Source of the DNA: an uncultured Gammaproteobacteria bacterium
GTDB taxonomy: Bacteria; Patescibacteriota; Microgenomatia; UBA1406; GWC2-37-13
Assembly (NCBI GenBank): GCA_964485585.1
Contig: CAZAJT010000001.1
Coordinates: 150 to 64,149, forward strand
Length of the DNA: 64,000 bases
Reading direction: 5' to 3'
The position numbers and the translations under genes were made by a program. Positions 1 through 7,136 of this stretch are shown one piece after another. Positions within the stretch are counted from its first letter, which is position 1. Each line of letters opens with the position of its first letter. The notes beneath the pieces are model-generated. The model had not been told where the DNA came from. It worked only from the letters and a program-made list of their open reading frames with translations, and searched no databases.

Positions 1-1
1 A

Positions 2-475
2 AAAGTAAGATCGGTAACAGAAAATGATAAAGAATGGATTAATGATATAACAATAAGAGAATGGGGATCTGATTTTATTATTGCTGATCACAAAATTTAT
101 AGACCTAAAGACTTATCAGGTATAATCATTGAAGAAAATGATGAAAAATTGGGGCTTTTAACCTACATTATAGAAAATAACGAATGTAAAATAATTTCCC
201 TCAACAGTCTTAAACAAAATAAGGGAGTTGGCACAATACTATTGGATGAGTTAAAACGAACTGCTAAAGAAAAAGGAGCTATTAGGATATTGATAGAAAC
301 TACTAACGATAATCTTAATGCTCTAAGGTTTTATCAAAAAAGAGGTTTCCAAATAATTGCCGTTTATCCTAATGCAATAGATGAAGCGCGGAAGAAAAAA
401 CCTCAGATTCCTCTTATTGGAGAAAATAATATTCCATTAAGAGATGTTCTTGAACTGGAATTTAAATTGCAGTAA
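2..475 (+). CDS. GNAT-family N-acetyltransferase, 5'-partial (frame open to window edge)
   Basis: The frame of ORF 149-475 stays open back to nt 2 (KVRSVTENDKEWINDITIREWGSDF...). It carries the acetyl-CoA motif QNKGVGTILLDEL and the C-terminal LRFYQKRGF signature typical of GNAT enzymes. Confidence 0.8.
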   Translation, partial: KVRSVTENDKEWINDITIREWGSDFIIADHKIYRPKDLSGIIIEENDEKLGLLTYIIENNECKIISLNSLKQNKGVGTILLDELKRTAKEKGAIRILIETTNDNLNALRFYQKRGFQIIAVYPNAIDEARKKKPQIPLIGENNIPLRDVLELEFKLQ

Positions 476-479
476 TAAT

Positions 480-554
480 TTCCAACATATTCAACCAACT
501 TGGACTCGCTTCCCAATGATCAAAACCACCTAGAGGCTAATACGCGGTTGGAAC
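480..554 (+). repeat. attC-like repeat R1 (integron-cassette-type boundary)
   Basis: It begins TTCCAAC (480-486) just after the GNAT stop and ends GTTGGAA(C) (547-554). The termini are exact reverse complements. It is alignable over its whole length with the repeats at 1911, 2391 and 3937. Confidence 0.55.
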
Positions 555-612
555 GCTTACATCCTTTCTCTGTTATAATATATTTAGAGCTTGAAGATAA
601 GGAATTTCACCT

Positions 613-1883
613 ATGGAAATACTTTTTATTCTGTCACTTATTGTATTGAATGGTATTTTTGCTATGGCTGAAATAGCTATAGTTACAGCAAGAAAAAGCC
701 GTCTTCAACACAAGGCAAATGAAGGAGATAAAAATGCGAAAATTGCTCTTGATTTGGCAAATAATCCTAATCGTCTATTATCCACAATACAAATAGGCAT
801 TACATCTATAGGTATTTTTGCCGGTGTATTTGGTGGAGCGACAATCGCAGAATCTTTATCAAAACAATTTGATGTTTTACCCTTTCTTAATCCTTACAGT
901 AATGCTTTAGCATTTACTATAGTAGTTGTTGTTATTACTTATCTCACGCTTGTAATTGGAGAATTAGTTCCTAAACGATTGGCTTTAAGTAATCCTGAAA
1001 AAGTAGCATCCTTTATAGCGGGCCCCATGAATTTTTTATCTAATTTTTCTTCACCTCTAGTTACTCTTTTAAGTATATCTACTGATTAAAAGAAGCGCCA
1101 ATTAGCGAAGAAGAAATCAGAGCGCTTATAAAAGAAGGGGCAAGAATAGGCATACTAAAACTAGCCGAAAAGGATATTTTGGAGAGGACATTTAAAGTTG
1201 CTGATAAAAAAGTTAACAAACTTATGACGCCTCGTACTGATATTGTCTGGATAGACATTGATGATGCATTTAAGACTATTCGAAATAAAATAGTATCCGA
1301 TACTCACTCTTATTACCCCGTCTGTCGTGGTTCTTTAGATAAAGTAATAGGTATCCTCAGAACAGAAGACATTTTATCTAATTTTCTAGTTGAAGGAAAA
1401 ATAAATTTAAATGATATGTTGCTTAAACCGCTTTTTGTTCCTGAAAGTACGGACACTTTGCACGTTCTGGAACAGTTTAAAAAAACAGGTGTCCACATGG
1501 CACTGATAGTTGATGAATATGGTAGCATACAAGGTTTAGTATGGCTGCAGGATATACTTGAAGCAATCGTAGGAGAGATACCAAAAGCAGAAAAAGAAGA
1601 AGAAAAAGATATTGTGAAACGGGAAGACGGCTCCTATCTGGTAGATGGATTAGTTACCATTGATGAGTTTAAAGATTACTTTAAAATGAAAAAAATACTT
1701 GGTGAAAAGTCTAATAATTTCCATTCTATTGGAGGATTGATAATGACTAAAGTAGGGAGAATACCAATTGTGGGTGATAGTTTTGAATTAGAGCCATTCC
1801 GTTTTGAAGTAATAGATATGGATGGTAATAGGGTAGATAAAGTTTTAGTAGTACCTTTAAGTAAAATCAAGAATAAGCATTAA
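613..1883 (+). pseudogene. CNNM/TlyC/CorC-type hemolysin-family protein (DUF21 + 2xCBS + CorC_HlyC), split by an internal deletion/frameshift
   Basis: ORF 613-1089 is the DUF21 membrane half (..GELVPKRLALSNPEK..LLSISTD*). A different frame, open from 1086, encodes the usual continuation LKEAPISEEEIRALIKEGARIGIL..LMTPRTDIVWIDIDD plus the CBS and CorC domains. The roughly 10-15 aa normally joining the two parts are missing. Confidence 0.75.
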
Positions 1884-1910
1884 ACAATACATATCCTTTC
1901 TTGTAATAAT

Positions 1911-1995
1911 TTCCAACATACTCAACCAGCATGGACTCGGCTCTTAGCTTTACTCTTCTATATCAAACTATTGCAACAGACTAGTGAATTCGGAC
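1911..1995 (+). repeat. attC-like repeat R2 (right end degenerate)
   Basis: GTAATAATTTCCAACATACTCAACCAGCATGGACTCGG is near-identical to the left part of R1. The right end reads TTCGGAC instead of GTTGGAAC. Confidence 0.5.
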
Positions 1996-2013
1996 TTTTG
2001 GTATACTTCAGAT

Positions 2014-2385
2014 ATGAAATTCTACGTTGCGGGGAGATTTAGTGACAAAGAGAAGATAAGAGAAATTAACAACCTTATTCTAAGTAAGTGGCATGAACTT
2101 TCTGGTGACTGAACCAATCACGTAGGTTCTGATGATTATGTAAAGACTGCTGAACGATCAAAAAATTATGCAATTGAGGATATTAACGCTGTATTGAGTT
2201 GTGATATTTTTGTTTTACTACTTAATGAGAAAGGCGGAACAGGTAGTTCTACGGAATTAGGTGTGGCGCTTGCCCTAAATAAAAAAATCTATGCTGTTGG
2301 GAATCATATTGGAAATAATATGTTTAATTTTCACCCATCCGTAATTCATAAGAGAACAATAGCGGAAGTTCTAGAAAATTTATAG
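2014..2385 (+). pseudogene. nucleoside 2-deoxyribosyltransferase-like protein interrupted by an in-frame TGA (2110-2112)
   Basis: ATG 2014 gives MKFYVAGRFSDKEKIREINNLILSKWHELSGD-TGA-TNHVGSDDY.., in the same frame as track ORF 2194-2385 (..GGTGSSTELGVALALNKKIYAV..). The N-terminal MKxYxAG and the TELG motif fit the NDT-like fold family. Confidence 0.6.
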
Positions 2386-2390
2386 TAGTT

Positions 2391-2464
2391 TTCCACATAT
2401 TCAACCAGCCTGGACACATGCCCTAAGGCTCCAAACTACATAAAGGCCAGTATACGGTTGGAAC
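2391..2464 (+). repeat. attC-like repeat R3
   Basis: TTCCA-CATATTCAACCAGCCTGGAC ... ACGGTTGGAAC. It starts 6 nt after the stop codon at 2383-2385. Confidence 0.55.
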
Positions 2465-2485
2465 TTTTGATATACTTTCATAAAC

Positions 2486-2950
2486 ATGGTTATTCGTGAA
2501 CTTTTATCTTCTGATATTGAATCAATAAATAAGATTGCAAAATCTTTACATCCAAAATGGTTTACGTCAGATGCTCTCAAAAATATCTCGATTGATGTTC
2601 AGATAGATAAATGTTACGTTGCTGAATCAAATAATAATATAGTTGGCTTCATAATTTTTTCGTCTCAAGATGGAGAAGTTAGGATAAATTGGCTTGGAGT
2701 CAATCCAGATTTTCATAGAGAAGGTACAGGAAGTAAGTTATTAGAAAGGGTCATTAATTTTGTAAAAGAAATCGGTTCAAAAAAGATTATTGTAGAAACT
2801 GTAGTTGAACAAATCCCAAAAGATGGTAGCTATGATGAAACAATGAAGTTTTATATGAAACAAGGATTTATGATCTTCAAAAAGTATCCTGAAGAACATT
2901 TTAAAGAGTTCACTTTTACAAAAGGCCTTCTTGAAAAACAAATTAAGTAA
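2486..2950 (+). CDS. GNAT-family N-acetyltransferase
   Basis: Carries ..WLGVNPDFHREGTGSKLLERV.. (R-x-x-G-x-G/A motif) and ..FYMKQGF.., at a typical 154-aa size. Confidence 0.85.
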   Translation: MVIRELLSSDIESINKIAKSLHPKWFTSDALKNISIDVQIDKCYVAESNNNIVGFIIFSSQDGEVRINWLGVNPDFHREGTGSKLLERVINFVKEIGSKKIIVETVVEQIPKDGSYDETMKFYMKQGFMIFKKYPEEHFKEFTFTKGLLEKQIK

Positions 2951-3038
2951 TTTTACTAACACCTATCGTGGCGATTACTTTCTTTCTTGGAACCATATGA
3001 AAGTATGATGCAAAATTCTTCCATTCCAACATCATTTA

Positions 3039-3311
3039 TTGGTAAAATATGACATGACAGTTAATAGAATTATTAAGAATAAGCCGTATCTCGCTTGGTA
3101 CGTAAAAGATCCGGAGAAGCTTTCGGAAGAATCAGTTTTAGAACATGTGTTAAATTATGGTAACTGGGATGATGTGCAGCAATTTATCAAAATTAAAGGT
3201 AAGGATAAAACAACTGAGCTTTTCAAAAAGACACTAACAAATAAAAGGACGAATTATTCTCCGGCAATTCAGTCCTTTTTTTCCCGTTATTTTAACAATA
3301 AAAATGCATAA
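3039..3311 (+). CDS. small hypothetical protein, putative partner (antitoxin-like) of the downstream AbiEii-type nucleotidyltransferase
   Basis: A 90-aa ORF (TTG 3039, or ATG 3054) whose stop overlaps the next start by 8 nt. I recognised no domain; the functional guess rests on context only. Confidence 0.45.
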   Translation: MVKYDMTVNRIIKNKPYLAWYVKDPEKLSEESVLEHVLNYGNWDDVQQFIKIKGKDKTTELFKKTLTNKRTNYSPAIQSFFSRYFNNKNA

Positions 3312-3912
3312 AAATATACTCAATGCCGATCAGGAACAATTATTATCTTTTATAAAATCATTTTTACCAGATTTTTATCTTGTCGGTGGAACTGCAATCG
3401 CCCTTTATCTCGGTCATAGAAGGTCTATTGATTTTGATTTGTTCACGGATAATACATTTGATCCGATGAAAATACGTAATAAAATACTAATAGATAAAAC
3501 TATTGAATATACTTTTTCTCAAGGTAGTGGTGAATTAACAGTTCTCATCGATAAAGTGAGAGTAACTTTTTTTCATTATCCTTTCAAAATTCAAAGAAAT
3601 ATAACATTTGAACAAACTTTAAAACTTCCCGACCTAATTACCCTTGGAGCCATGAAAGCATTCGCTCTTGGAAGGCGAGCAAAATGGAAGGATTATGTTG
3701 ATCTTTATTTCATTTTTCAAAATCATTCATTTCAGGAACTTATTAGTAAAACAAACAGTATTTTTAAAGAAGAATTTAATGAAAAATTATTCCGGACTCA
3801 ACTTGGGTATTTTGAAGACGTTGATTATACTGAACAGATTGAATATATCACGGGGTATGAAAAAAAAGACAGCGATATAAAACAATTCCTTGAGAAAATA
3901 AGCCTATCTTGA
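3304..3912 (+). CDS. nucleotidyltransferase AbiEii/AbiGii toxin-family protein
   Basis: FYLVGGTAIALYLGHRRSIDFDLF matches the hallmark GGTAL..HR.S.DiDlf NTase motif of the type IV TA toxin family. Confidence 0.7.
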   Translation: MHKNILNADQEQLLSFIKSFLPDFYLVGGTAIALYLGHRRSIDFDLFTDNTFDPMKIRNKILIDKTIEYTFSQGSGELTVLIDKVRVTFFHYPFKIQRNITFEQTLKLPDLITLGAMKAFALGRRAKWKDYVDLYFIFQNHSFQELISKTNSIFKEEFNEKLFRTQLGYFEDVDYTEQIEYITGYEKKDSDIKQFLEKISLS

Positions 3913-3936
3913 GAAACTGGTAATGGACATAAAAAG

Positions 3937-4011
3937 TCCTAACATATTCAACTAGCCTGGATTCGCTTCCTTTTGGTCTAAACTACAATAAGGTAATAGA
4001 ACGGTTGGAAC
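3937..4011 (+). repeat. attC-like repeat R4
   Basis: TCCTAACATATTCAACTAGCCTGGATTCGC ... AACTACAATAAGG ... ACGGTTGGAAC. It is homologous to R1-R3. Confidence 0.55.
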
Positions 4012-4029
4012 TTTTGATATACTTTCTTT

Positions 4030-4896
4030 ATGAATATTCCAGTTAAGAAACTCCAAAACGGTTTTAGATTACCAGTTTTAGGATTTGGGACTTGGACAAT
4101 TGGTGGAAAGAGAGAAAAAGATACAACAAATGACGAAATTAATATTTTAGGTATAAAAAATGCAATAAATTCAGGATTAACTCATATTGATACCGCTGAA
4201 ATGTACGCTGCTGGGCATGCGGAAGAAATTGTTGGAATAGCCATAAAAGAATTTCCTAGAAAAAAGTTATTCATTACCACTAAAGTAGCACCTGATCATC
4301 TTAAATATGATGATTTATTTAGAGCTTGTGAGAATAGTTTGAAAAGGCTTCAAACTGACTATTTAGATTTGTATCTTATTCATTCTCCTAATGATGAAGT
4401 TCCAATTAATGAGACCATGAAGGCATTAAATAAATTAAAAGATCAGGGTTTGATTAAAAATATTGGTGTTAGTAATTTTAAAACTTCTAGATTAAAAAAA
4501 GCTCAGCAAACTTCAGTTAGTCCCATTGTTACCAATCAAGTTTTTTATAATTTGATTGTTCGTCAACCTGAAACTGATGGATTAATTGAATATTGCCAAA
4601 AAAATGATATTTTAATAACAGCATTTAGACCAGTTGATAGGGGTTTATTAACCCAATCTAATAATCAGATATTTGCCGAAATATGTAATAAATACCAAAA
4701 AACTCCTGCGCAAATGGCTATAAATTGGTTAATATCACAGGATAATGTCGTTACAATTTCGAAAATGAGTAATCGAAAACATTTAGAAGAAAATCTTAAA
4801 GCTTTAAATTGGAAAATGGAGCAAATTGATATTAAAAAGTTAAGAGATGAATTCCCCAATCAGCAAAAAGATACTTCTGAAACACCATTGAGATGA
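4030..4896 (+). CDS. aldo/keto reductase
   Basis: LGFGTW..G, HIDTAEMY, DYLDLYLIHSP and GVSNF are classic AKR signatures. Confidence 0.9.
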   Translation: MNIPVKKLQNGFRLPVLGFGTWTIGGKREKDTTNDEINILGIKNAINSGLTHIDTAEMYAAGHAEEIVGIAIKEFPRKKLFITTKVAPDHLKYDDLFRACENSLKRLQTDYLDLYLIHSPNDEVPINETMKALNKLKDQGLIKNIGVSNFKTSRLKKAQQTSVSPIVTNQVFYNLIVRQPETDGLIEYCQKNDILITAFRPVDRGLLTQSNNQIFAEICNKYQKTPAQMAINWLISQDNVVTISKMSNRKHLEENLKALNWKMEQIDIKKLRDEFPNQQKDTSETPLR

Positions 4897-4915
4897 GAAG
4901 GCTCAATACAAAAGG

Positions 4916-4996
4916 TCACATAACCTATTCAGCTGGTCTGGACTAGAAAGCGAGATGATAGAACAATCCATCAGGAGACCTTTAACGGGAATTGGC
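4916..4996 (+). repeat. attC-like repeat R5, strongly degenerate (last of the array)
   Basis: TCACATAACCTATTCAGCTGGTCTGGACTAG aligns, with indels, to the left half of R1-R4. The right end AACGGGAATTGGCG is only a remnant of ACGGTTGGAAC. Confidence 0.35.
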
Positions 4997-5055
4997 GTAA
5001 TGACAATTAAGGTTCTCATGTCTAACTCTTCATTACAATCTGCTATCATAAGAAT

Positions 5056-5640
5056 ATGTCTCAGAGTAAATGGTGGAGTTTGTATCTGATAGCAGGTCTT
5101 GTTATTCTATCATTGCAGTCGTACATCGCATTTCCTCGCAGTCCTCTTCTTTTATTGCAAGATTTGATAATACCATCTGTAATAGTGATAACTTCTATTT
5201 TTGTCCTATTTAAACCAAAAGCACTCAATCTACTCTTCATTGGACTTTTATACATGTTTTTAACAATGATCTTTTTGTTCGTCGACTCAAAAATGAAACC
5301 TTATGGAACAGCAACGTTTTTGTTCGGGACGTGGCTTCTAGTTGATTATGTAAATTTAAAAAAGTTTAACCAAAGCATCGTAACCAATATGGTAAATCCT
5401 CAGTCAAAGATAGGAAAGGGAGTGTTTTTCTCAACATTCATATTTGGGTTGATCACTGAGTATACTAATCTTCCATTTGAAATTTGGACATATAATATTC
5501 CTCTGCCTTCACTTACCAACTTCGGAATTCCTGCTCTCATTGCTGCATTTGGATGGACTCCTTGGACGCTCTCAATCTTATCGATCTTTTACTATTTTAT
5601 TTTGAACGAACAAAAAATGACTCAGTCGAATACTAAATAA
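5056..5640 (+). CDS. hypothetical polytopic membrane protein
   Basis: A 194-aa ORF with about 6 hydrophobic segments. No domain recognised. Confidence 0.55.
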   Translation: MSQSKWWSLYLIAGLVILSLQSYIAFPRSPLLLLQDLIIPSVIVITSIFVLFKPKALNLLFIGLLYMFLTMIFLFVDSKMKPYGTATFLFGTWLLVDYVNLKKFNQSIVTNMVNPQSKIGKGVFFSTFIFGLITEYTNLPFEIWTYNIPLPSLTNFGIPALIAAFGWTPWTLSILSIFYYFILNEQKMTQSNTK

Positions 5641-5667
5641 GACTGTAGTTACGCATATGAATAAATT

Positions 5668-6042
5668 ATGGAAGAAACGAAAAATGTTACCGGTTTGGAT
5701 ATAGAGCTCATTAAGAAACTATTGACTGGTGATTTTACCGGAATTCCCATTGATCAGCTAAAACAGGTGTTTTCTCCCACCTTTGCCGCAGAAGCAGTCC
5801 ATACCTTAGCAAAAGAGCTGAGAAACGATAATTTTGGCAATGCCGCTCATCTCTATATCAGAGAAAGACAGGGAGGTAAATCTCCAGCACAGATTTTCGC
5901 CCTGATGAATGGCGGGCAGCTTCCAGAGCTTGATTTCGCAACTTCAATCAAAGGGGTTGGTCTCCAATATGCACGCGGCTCACTCTTCATGGCTTACGAG
6001 GAAGCCTATCAACGTTATCTTCTCTCAACGAAACTCAAATAA
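5668..6042 (+). CDS. hypothetical protein
   Basis: A 124-aa ORF 27 nt downstream of the previous gene. No recognisable motif. Confidence 0.45.
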   Translation: MEETKNVTGLDIELIKKLLTGDFTGIPIDQLKQVFSPTFAAEAVHTLAKELRNDNFGNAAHLYIRERQGGKSPAQIFALMNGGQLPELDFATSIKGVGLQYARGSLFMAYEEAYQRYLLSTKLK

Positions 6043-6074
6043 TAATCGTCTTTTTTTGCTACTATTAATACAGT

Positions 6075-7136
6075 ATGACTTTGACAGAGATGTCCTATTA
6101 TAGTAGAAGGCTGCTGCCCTTTGCCATTATCGGTGTTCTCGTATTTCTGATCTTTTATTATGCAATTCAGGTATTTTTTCTCTACATAGAGAGTCAGAAG
6201 CCCAAGCAGATCCTTATTGAGGATGAATTTGGAAAAATCAAAAGACCGATAGTTAAGAATGCTTTCACGGGAACTAATTTTACCTACACTCTTGATACCG
6301 TAGAAGGTCAACCCATAACCGCAACCGACAGCGCGCAGGTATTCTTCTTTCCCCCATCAACCGCGCGATTTGGATTTCGAGATAAAATCTACGTAGTGGC
6401 AAAGACACTCGGATTTAATACCGAGCTTACCAAGCATACACTTGATGGTACCCAAGCAATTTTTACCGAGCCAAACCAACGACTTTCCATAGATATCACC
6501 AATTTTAATTTTACGTACGAATATGAAATCGCGCAGGATGAAGACGTACTCAAAAACACTACTATTCCGCGGCCAGAAGATATCGAGGAGAAAGCGATGG
6601 ATTTCTTACGTACCATAAGTCGATATCCTGAAGAACTCGCAAAAGGAAAGCTCAACATTATTTATCATGTGTATGATAGAGAAAATAATCGACTGACTTC
6701 TACGTCACGACCTCAGGATGCGAATGTAGTTGAGGTAGATTTTTACCGACCTGATATTGAGGCACAACCACAAAGTATTGCGGTAGTTGCACCAAAGTAC
6801 TTCAATAGTCAGAATTATGTCATTATGGTATTTGGCGAGAACGGGTTTAAGGTACTCAAAGCACAAGTACAATTTTTCGAGAAATCTGATGGTACTGTTG
6901 GAATCTATCCATTGAAAACCGGCGATCAGGCATATGAGGCGCTTCGCGCCGGAAAGGGAATTGTTGTTTCACGCGCAGAAAACGCTCCTACAAACATTAC
7001 TATCAAAAAGATGTTTTTAGGCTACTATGATCCAGATACGTATCAAGAATATCTTCAGCCGATATATGTATTTTTGGGAGAACACGAATTTGTAGGATAT
7101 GTACCGGCGGTAAGAGACGATTATGTCATAGAGTGA
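6075..7136 (+). CDS. hypothetical N-terminally membrane-anchored protein
   Basis: A 353-aa ORF with a single N-terminal TM segment (LLPFAIIGVLVFLIFYYAIQVFFLY). No domain recognised. Confidence 0.6.
   Translation: MTLTEMSYYSRRLLPFAIIGVLVFLIFYYAIQVFFLYIESQKPKQILIEDEFGKIKRPIVKNAFTGTNFTYTLDTVEGQPITATDSAQVFFFPPSTARFGFRDKIYVVAKTLGFNTELTKHTLDGTQAIFTEPNQRLSIDITNFNFTYEYEIAQDEDVLKNTTIPRPEDIEEKAMDFLRTISRYPEELAKGKLNIIYHVYDRENNRLTSTSRPQDANVVEVDFYRPDIEAQPQSIAVVAPKYFNSQNYVIMVFGENGFKVLKAQVQFFEKSDGTVGIYPLKTGDQAYEALRAGKGIVVSRAENAPTNITIKKMFLGYYDPDTYQEYLQPIYVFLGEHEFVGYVPAVRDDYVIE

Follow-up and report, generated by a model that had tools for sequence, protein, structure and literature searches.

Which recombination system assembled the cassette array that opens the 64-kb window of contig CAZAJT010000001.1? 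A preliminary description of its first 4996 nucleotides (nt) had read the segment as integron-like, with attC-like repeats standing between unrelated small genes. Our analysis confirms an array of co-oriented, unrelated accessory cassettes split by recombination-site-like repeats at one low-GC locus, and the intuition of a gene-capture platform is sound. However, the repeats are not attC sites and the array fails the defining tests of an integron. It is better described as a tRNA-Tyr-anchored mini-cassette island, which follows an integron-like logic without being an integron. The account that we favour, at slightly better than even chances, is that the island grew as small cassettes, each with a promoter, were integrated site-specifically one after another at a tRNA-Tyr(GUA) 3' end. 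Positions 1 to about 6040 would then form part of an accessory-gene island in the genome of a Candidatus Roizmanbacteria member of the Candidate Phyla Radiation (CPR). Throughout, 'the window' is the whole 64-kb stretch analysed, to which all coordinates refer unless a locus is named; loci numbered L001 and so on are related sequences, including Logan contigs in the L001-L003 set and as L068.

Repeats and cassettes in the window

Four strong copies of the repeat lie on the + strand, R1 (472-555), R2 (1903-1996), R3 (2382-2465) and R4 (3929-4012), together with a divergent fifth + strand copy, R5, which starts at 4916. The five co-oriented repeats first reported are therefore present as four good copies and one degenerate one. 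A 21-nt core pattern matched four times in the window, with 0 matches expected from 100 shuffles, and a full-length repeat profile run over the 64 kb recovered no copy beyond R1-R5, that is 0 in 5.1-64 kb. Within the window, the repeat is thus confined to a single locus and not scattered like a generic repetitive extragenic palindrome (REP). Every copy begins 0-20 nt past the stop codon of a + strand gene, which puts a measure on the proximity noted before. The A+T-richness of the segment was likewise borne out: GC content is 0.32-0.34 across 1-6000 and about 0.40 in the remaining window. Since the low GC continues to about 6040 and the same promoter-ATG architecture recurs after R5 (5041-5056), the island extends past 4996 and probably reaches about 6040.

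The array does not depend on one assembly. GCA_016198825.1 and two Logan contigs (L001-L003) contain the junction contexts of R2-R4 with an identity of about 100%, and those of R1 and of rep0, a further complete copy situated 120 nt left of the window, recur in Logan contig L068. This confirms that the array is independent of a single assembly, and the repeat observation stands.

The conserved unit is wider than the 75-85-nt repeat originally delimited, with TAATAA at its left and an extended -10 promoter at its right. It consists of three parts: a pseudo tRNA-Tyr 3' end (GGTTCYAAC...CCTGGAC), hereafter the P arm, which ends in the core; an arm of 50-60 nt, hereafter the P' arm; and the extended -10 promoter. 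The features of the array are as follows.

1..475, +, cassette gene 1, GNAT acetyltransferase (Pfam PF00583, E=1e-12)
472..555, +, junction R1; P arm (pseudo-tRNA-Tyr 3' end) 472-505, core TTGGAC 500-505
506-555, +, R1 P' arm, terminating in GGTTGGAAC at 546-554
571..579, +, extended -10 promoter-like motif TGTTATAAT of the CNNM cassette
613..1883, +, cassette gene 2, CNNM/CBS/CorC_HlyC transporter-type (Pfam), split gene
1903..1996, +, junction R2; P arm 1903-1936, core ATGGAC 1931-1936
1987-1995, +, AATTCGGAC, end of the R2 P' arm (subtype C)
1999..2007, +, extended -10 motif TGGTATACT, 6 nt ahead of the ATG at 2014
2014..2385, +, cassette gene 3, nucleoside 2-deoxyribosyltransferase-like (Pfam, Nuc_deoxyrib_tr)
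2382..2465, +, junction R3; P arm 2382-2415, core CTGGAC 2410-2415, P' arm end GGTTGGAAC 2456-2464
2468..2476, +, extended -10 motif TGATATACT, 9 nt ahead of the ATG at 2486
2486..2950, +, cassette gene 4, second GNAT acetyltransferase (Pfam)
2951..3048, +, decayed junction(s) between the second GNAT gene and the toxin pair, read from the sequence
3054..3912, +, cassette 5, DUF6922-like small gene (to 3311) and AbiEii-family nucleotidyltransferase toxin (3304-3912) (Pfam)
3929..4012, +, junction R4; P arm 3929-3962, core CTGGAT 3957-3962, P' arm end GGTTGGAAC 4003-4011
4015..4023, +, extended -10 motif TGATATACT, 6 nt ahead of the ATG at 4030
4030..4896, +, cassette gene 6, aldo-keto reductase (Pfam; MBI4004661.1, Candidatus Roizmanbacteria bacterium)
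4916..5049, +, junction R5, divergent; P arm 4916-4943, core CTGGAC 4938-4943, profile E=0.53
5041..5049, +, extended -10-like motif TGCTATCAT; the right arm of R5 is atypical
5056..6042, +, two hypothetical open reading frames (ORFs), 5056-5640 and 5668-6042, low GC; probably the last cassette(s)

Pfam recovers the set of unrelated cassette-type genes named in the preliminary description, and the two genes called decayed there are indeed interrupted. A deletion of 29 nt after 1087 (1087-1088) divides the CNNM gene; the gene is intact in the otherwise identical L068 (SRR4343428), and the deletion may be a variant within the population or else an artefact of assembly. Cassette gene 3 carries an in-frame TGA at 2110-2112, which may mark a pseudogene or reflect a sequencing or recoding issue. 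The complete protein of cassette gene 1 (P0001, 160 aa, 100% identical) starts at an ATG 8 nt left of the window, and in L068 this ATG is preceded by rep0 and then a promoter. The CNNM gene starts at the ATG at 613, behind a 33-nt leader containing AAGGAA. What is left in 2951-3048 comprises CTTGGAAC (2986-2993), ATTCCAACATCATT (about 3020-3033) and the extended -10 motif TGGTAAAAT (3040-3048); L030 and L051 have a full junction ahead of the same toxin-pair cassette. The ORFs of 5056-6042 have no homologue in related loci.

Promoter motifs at the junctions

An extended -10 motif, scored as TGnTAnnnT with at least 5/6 matches to TATAAT, is present in 28 of 47 unique junctions, as against 2.9 in shuffles. 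Of 26 cases, 21 have the -10 element ending 4-11 nt short of the following ATG, and on the + strand of 1-5200 each of the six motifs of this kind stands ahead of a cassette or ORF start. A simple -35/-10 scanner gave no enrichment, because the promoters are of the extended -10 type. With the -10 element so near the ATG, the predicted mRNAs of most cassettes would have little or no leader. These cassettes thus have their own promoters, unlike integron cassettes, which are generally promoterless and expressed from Pc.

The repeats are not attC sites

The integron explanation holds that the locus is a canonical array, either a cluster of attC sites lacking an integrase (CALIN) or an integron whose intI gene lies off the left edge, and that its attC sites are recombined as folded single strands by IntI at G|TT. 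The co-oriented cassettes, with toxin-antitoxin and GNAT genes among them, would suit it, and so would the 8-bp inverted termini of type-A junctions, in which GTTCCAAC...GTTGGAAC give six of seven matches each to RYYYAAC and GTTRRRY. These boxes are missing in subtypes B and C and in R2, subtypes B and C having no right-hand R-prime box. Within the window, the exact inverted termini TTCCAAC and GTTGGAA that had been ascribed to all intact copies hold for R1 only; R3 has TTTCCAC and R4 TCCTAAC at the left, and R2 ends in ATTCGGA. In an alignment of 11 full-length type-A copies the terminal 8-bp boxes GTTCCAAC/GTTGGAAC are complementary because both are near-invariant, not through covariation, and the inner, L-box-like pairs are mostly mismatched.

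Folding points the same way. A genuine attC single strand forms a hairpin that comprises an R box, an unpaired central spacer, an L box with extrahelical bases and a variable terminal structure. Both strands of the five window copies, and the bottom strands of five related junctions, are no more stable than shuffled sequence when folded (z -0.8 to +1.4), whereas attC(aadA1) of R100, run as a control in the same tool, gave -18.3/-18.8 kcal/mol (z -4.6/-3.7). Of 13 copies folded, the only one that folds well is rep0 in L068 (bottom strand dG -15.4, z -3.3), a point in favour of the integron. The bottom-strand check proposed at the outset therefore disclosed no attC-like hairpin in the window copies, and with no conserved L-box pairing the identification of the repeats as attC fails. 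Rfam reported nothing at the repeats, either at gathering thresholds over the whole window or in a permissive scan of 1-5200. We also considered a tRNA-like RNA minihelix or RNA processing signal and rejected it, since the repeats are not self-complementary and Rfam finds no tRNA in them.

In the sequence covered, the intI/attI expected at the left did not appear either. Run at E<=10 with an IntI1 query checked to be 100% identical to R100 intI1, phmmer retrieved nothing from the 793 ORFs of the window and L001-L067, and a scan for the catalytic motifs (HxxRH/box II) in 667 ORFs, including those of later loci, was negative in CPR loci. On the source contig the sequence examined reaches 360 nt left of the window, and an integrase may lie further left; in relatives, the visible upstream end of the array is a tRNA-Tyr gene. 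Finally, the homology of shared upstream genes stops at the mid-repeat CTGGAC core, about 50 nt ahead of the GTTGGAA 'R-prime' at which the crossover had been placed. Together with the cassette-borne promoters, the lack of an IntI-like protein in these searches and the position of related arrays downstream of tRNA-Tyr, these results largely refute the integron explanation, which retains hardly any probability. Attention to attC-like termini by eye is evidently not enough to diagnose an integron.

Distribution of related arrays

GTDB genomes and JGI metagenomes, each scanned once with the pattern of the left block, yielded about 60 loci (about 0.4 Mb). Once chance matches were removed, the true matches all lay on low-GC, CPR-like contigs, many of them labelled Roizmanbacteria. 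Co-oriented arrays occur in at least 13 independent loci, with a maximum of seven junctions in 7.2 kb, and the copies within each array are on one strand, save for one weak exception in L067. An apparent conservation in Gammaproteobacteria, Thiotrichaceae and other phyla was discarded, about 35 chance matches being expected for the pattern. Four contigs with true matches are labelled uncultured Gammaproteobacteria (L007, CAYHIW010000015.1; L011, CAYYYW010000006.1; L015, CAZITH010000180.1; L022, CAZXWS010000058.1). Given their 99-100% identity to, or synteny with, CPR/Roizmanbacteria-like groundwater contigs, these metagenome-assembled 'Gammaproteobacteria' contigs are probably misbinned.

This distribution bears on the idea that the repeat is an intergenic element of a generic kind and does not take part in moving genes, for instance a REP-like repeat, a miniature inverted-repeat transposable element or a terminator/insulator-plus-promoter module. 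Such an element would account for the promoter inside the repeat, for its intergenic position right after stop codons and for the hairpin insertions in some copies. However, dispersed repeats of this type typically occur in many copies across a genome, in both orientations and often with target-site duplications, whereas the repeat here is absent from the other 59 kb of the window and always has the orientation of the flanking genes. We saw no target duplications, no Rfam family and no stable RNA or DNA fold, and both the tRNA-Tyr anchoring and the cassette reassortment described below would be left unexplained. We regard this idea as very unlikely.

Related arrays follow tRNA-Tyr and junctions carry an altered copy of its 3' end

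The pattern used to fetch the loci matches no tRNA. ARAGORN nevertheless identified a tRNA-Tyr(GUA) gene in 12 dereplicated loci, and in 10 of the 12 a co-oriented junction lies 0.3-2.7 kb downstream of it; only four other tRNAs are present in the entire locus set. In several loci the tRNA end ...CCCCTGGAC is directly followed by an ordinary P' arm, then a promoter and a gene, so that the tRNA end stands in place of the pseudo-tRNA block. L007 provides an example (TCGCTTCCCAGCACTCCAAACAACTATAAGGCAATAGTACTGTTAGAAC + TGCTATAAT), in which the arm aligns base for base with those of R1 and R4. In other loci, a hairpin-flanked cassette encoding a GIY-YIG nuclease comes after the tRNA instead, and in L046 a bare tRNA-Tyr 3' fragment is followed by a promoter and a gene.

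The pseudo-tRNA block itself matches the T-loop-to-acceptor sequence with a 5-nt insertion added. Class-2 blocks (GGTTCTAACGTCCTCCACTCCCCTGGAC) equal the tRNA-Tyr 3' end (GGTTCGAA-----TCCTCCCCCCTGGAC) save for this one insertion, and class-1 blocks, the type found in the window (AGTTCCAACATATTCAACCAGCCTGGAC), agree with them in length and in both boxes. Because all pseudo-tRNA blocks carry the same 5-nt insertion, they appear to represent one evolving att family and not independent tRNA duplications. Among genomes whose genes are only 60-84% identical, conservation of the P arm far exceeds that of the low-GC DNA around it.

The pseudo-tRNA arm also tolerates inserted hairpins, 23-45 nt long, that lie between ATATTCAA and CCAGCCTGGAC (L047 5876-5960; L071 4520-4545 and 5950-5975). 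These hairpins may be terminators or variable-arm-like inserts.

Cassette boundaries fall near the core and cassettes are reassorted

Several cassettes recur in related genomes among other neighbours. The DUF6922/AbiEii pair is found in L030 and L051 at about 74% nt identity, with homology confined to the cassette. A GNAT homologue in L069 (84% aa identity) shares the upstream promoter and P' arm and the downstream P arm, and directly past GGAC L069 and the window are unrelated. In the same way, the CNNM homologue of the complete genome CP066689.1 (L071) shares the P' arm and promoter upstream and the P arm downstream, and diverges after GGAC. The cassette common to L054 and L062 shows 99.3% identity as far as the core, with different upstream cassettes and left arms. 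At the locus beside the genes for a 35x-aa membrane protein, a carboxypeptidase and aspartyl-tRNA synthetase (AspRS), the window, L069 and L047 hold wholly different cassettes. The cassette-level variation that the preliminary description proposed to look for is therefore supported. An assembly fork between L036 and L067 was rejected as a further cassette polymorphism, since it sits at the end of an IS3-type transposase gene and thus reflects an insertion sequence (IS).

In junction pairs with only the upstream gene in common (window versus L069, L026/L036 versus L055, L045 versus L033), similarity is 0.63-1.0 in the P arm and at background, 0.13-0.15, in the P' arm. The homology breaks in shared-gene pairs place the crossover at or near C(C)CCTGGAC, the stretch common to the tRNA, and not at GTTGGAA. 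In these comparisons, the P arm accompanies the gene before it, and the P' arm, with its promoter, the gene after it. A crossover at G|TT, as in integrons, would instead make the entire attC site travel with the preceding ORF.

Could such exchanges proceed by general recombination, with no dedicated recombinase? Junctions would then serve as short stretches of homology at which RecA swaps in cassettes from DNA that the cell has taken up, in the manner of the minimal mobile elements of Neisseria, and the likeness to tRNA-Tyr would be an old duplication. No recombinase was found in the loci, junctions have 27-35 nt of near-identical sequence in common, and the observed boundaries vary in position between -17 and +24 nt relative to the core, all of which would fit. 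Yet the strict conservation of the P arm would suit a protein-binding site better, the orientation is uniform, and the arrays are anchored exactly at the last 9 nt of the tRNA. Moreover, efficient RecA exchange has a usual minimum tract, and the homology tracts of the junctions would probably be at or below that minimum. We therefore consider this alternative unlikely.

A model of serial integration at tRNA-Tyr

According to the site-specific integration that we favour, each 85-95-nt junction would be a hybrid att site left behind by an integration event. Its P arm, (A)TAAGTTCYAAC-N13-CCTGGAC, would move with the upstream gene; the 6-9-nt core C(C)CCTGGAC, common to the real tRNA, would be the place of crossover; the P' arm, which in one subtype ends in GGTTGGAAC, an inverted copy of the P-arm box, would move with the downstream gene; and the extended -10 promoter would make up the fourth part. 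A free cassette would be a circle with P-core-P'. Integration would leave a complete tRNA and move earlier cassettes farther from it. A crossover on the 5' side of the 5-nt insertion would damage the tRNA; the crossover would therefore have to lie 3' of that insertion, in agreement with the placement of the core. Because the cassettes encode no recombinase, the enzyme would act in trans, and it would probably be a tyrosine-type integrase encoded elsewhere. It is tempting to speculate that the GTTCCAAC box and its inverted copy GGTTGGAAC may be putative arm-type binding sites.

Several observations weigh against this model. The reasoning is comparative throughout and rests on metagenome assemblies. 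The search for a recombinase next to the 12 tRNA-Tyr genes and within the arrays found none, and no circular cassette contig is present among the related loci. A consensus search for the site in plasmids and three scans of viral contigs returned chance matches only, with no phage copy. Concerning the boundaries, L028 and L042 share 24 nt past the core before they diverge, which places the boundary near the core, short of single-base precision, and the P' arms of the toxin pair are barely similar in L030 and L051 (0.20). The window itself is also atypical. ARAGORN finds no tRNA gene in 1-64000, hence no tRNA-Tyr, and the array is inverted relative to the conserved genes for the 353-aa membrane protein, the carboxypeptidase and AspRS (4916-7136 versus L069 4219-5481 and L047 1853-4021); L069 and L047 have tRNA-Tyr between those genes and the array, where the window has the 5056-6042 ORFs. 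Furthermore, rep0, the leftmost junction, is preceded by a divergent gene in head-to-head orientation and not by a tRNA.

The left flank of rep0 has an unusual structure. At L068 200-260 (about 120-170 nt left of the window), the outer end of its left arm is fused head-to-head to ACTCGGTTTAG...TATGTATAAT, the promoter and right-arm-like start of the divergent gene, which encodes a small membrane protein with no homologue in the protein index. A simple inversion at the core would not be expected to yield this fusion.

A further explanation, that the arrays are eroded remains of integrase-carrying islands or prophages inserted in tandem at tRNA-Tyr, would make the cassettes immobile today; the precedents would be tycheposons and the accretion of integrative and conjugative elements and of cis-mobilizable elements (CIMEs). 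Anchoring at a tRNA and repeats of partial tRNAs are a trace of tandem integration (Hackl et al., 10.1101/2020.12.28.424599), and two cassette genes of the window are decayed. Against this, no integrase fragment was found in the at least 13 arrays or about 60 loci. The modules are uniform, of one or two genes with the same promoter-ATG architecture, and the 5-nt insertion common to all pseudo-tRNA blocks points to a single att family. The same junction-bounded cassette also occurs in different arrays, including the pair at 99.3% identity. Erosion of this kind therefore seems to us doubtful at best.

Comparison with known systems

Reiteration of a tRNA-Tyr 3' end has a precedent in Escherichia coli. 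At tyrT, distal 178-bp repeats each begin with the last ~19 nt of tRNA-Tyr. The 3' end is thus likewise repeated downstream of the gene; these are, however, tandem duplications of one unit and not junctions between unrelated genes.

The arrays described here resemble integron arrays and CALINs (Cury et al. 2016, PMC4889954) in that co-oriented, mostly one-gene accessory cassettes without their own recombinase are gathered at a single locus with a conserved site-like repeat between them. Toxin-antitoxin and acetyltransferase cargo and a content that is wholly different between related genomes are further points in common, and the type-A junctions have short inverted boxes that resemble RYYYAAC/GTTRRRY. 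In contrast to integrons and CALINs, the junctions lack an attC hairpin, the crossover lies in mid-repeat, each cassette has a promoter, the primary site is the tRNA-Tyr 3' end and not an attI by intI, and no IntI was found in the window or related loci.

Tycheposons of Prochlorococcus are multi-kb elements with tyrosine recombinases and replication modules (Hackl et al., 10.1101/2020.12.28.424599). Like the present arrays, they are seeded at a tRNA 3' end, leave partial tRNA copies between elements, push older elements deeper as newcomers arrive, and inhabit streamlined hosts with few classical mobile elements. The units here are, however, only 0.4-1.5 kb long, carry no integrase or replication gene, and are separated by an 85-95-nt junction with a pseudo-tRNA arm lengthened by 5 nt and a promoter. 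The ssrA-specific islands of Dehalococcoides are about 10 kb or more, and about half have an integration module by the site (McMurdie et al. 2011, PMC3146451). These islands, and CIMEs arising from site-specific accretion, similarly involve repeated integration at one small-RNA gene, and some units need a recombinase in trans; unlike the Dehalococcoides islands, none of the arrays here shows an integration module. Our proposal thus combines tandem accretion at a tRNA with integron-like unit size and no cassette-borne recombinase. We found no description of such arrays in the searchable literature.

More tentatively, and with appreciably less confidence than we place in serial integration as such, we suggest that Roizmanbacteria and related CPR may possess a second, independently evolved cassette system. 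Here, a dedicated trans-acting recombinase of a possibly unrecognised family would move circles of 0.4-1.5 kb at tRNA-Tyr, each cassette would bring a pseudo-tRNA att site and a leaderless promoter, and the tRNA end would be the equivalent of attI. CPR genomes are about 1 Mb in size and the routes by which they gain and lose accessory genes are poorly understood. The evidence suggests a compact cassette platform at a tRNA gene that is recurrent in many groundwater populations and that concentrates toxin-antitoxin, acetyltransferase, transporter and other accessory genes; it thereby offers a concrete, testable mechanism for gene flux in these bacteria. The recombinase, if found, would add to the site-specific recombination toolbox a new pair of att site and enzyme, with cassette-sized substrates and built-in promoters.

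Mobile genes and minor sequence features of the arrays

The window contains no serine, IS110 or rve-type recombinase, and no tyrosine recombinase was found in it or in the about 60 related loci. In the about 0.4 Mb of related loci, the genes of this kind are limited to transposases (IS3-type, IS110 and Mutator) and a single large serine recombinase, situated 8.5 kb from a lone repeat. Transposase genes of the IS3-type (rve), IS110 and Mutator families lie within several arrays or at their head, and one of the Mutator genes comes immediately after tRNA-Tyr; the positions are as follows.

L036, 3724-4575, transposase gene
L023, 6647-7483, transposase gene
L052, 2841-3611, transposase gene
L032, 282-1220, transposase gene
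L044, 2511-3548, transposase gene

The commonest cassette in these arrays encodes a small GIY-YIG nuclease (about 95-105 aa), typically as the first gene after tRNA-Tyr. Two perfect hairpins lie ahead of such genes, and a block closer in sequence to the tRNA (GAAGTTTTAACGAAGGATACCCTCCCCCTGGAC) comes after them; tRNA-Ser and tRNA-Lys genes are further neighbours, and the window has no GIY-YIG gene. We considered this nuclease as the cassette mover and rejected it: it is itself a cassette, is not in the window and falls outside the known conservative recombinase classes. Its genes are distributed as follows.

L069, 5609-5926, GIY-YIG gene
L013, 2160-2453 and 4791-5120, GIY-YIG genes
L071, 2196-2477 and 20049-20288, GIY-YIG genes
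L028, 2818-3111, GIY-YIG gene
L033, L045 and L057, GIY-YIG genes

A short motif, TTTTACTAA(A)AC, lies at 2951-2963 of the window, directly past the stop codon of the second GNAT gene. It is also found after the terminal junctions of two related arrays (L069 ~12690; L071 ~5990), and may represent the original tRNA-distal flank.

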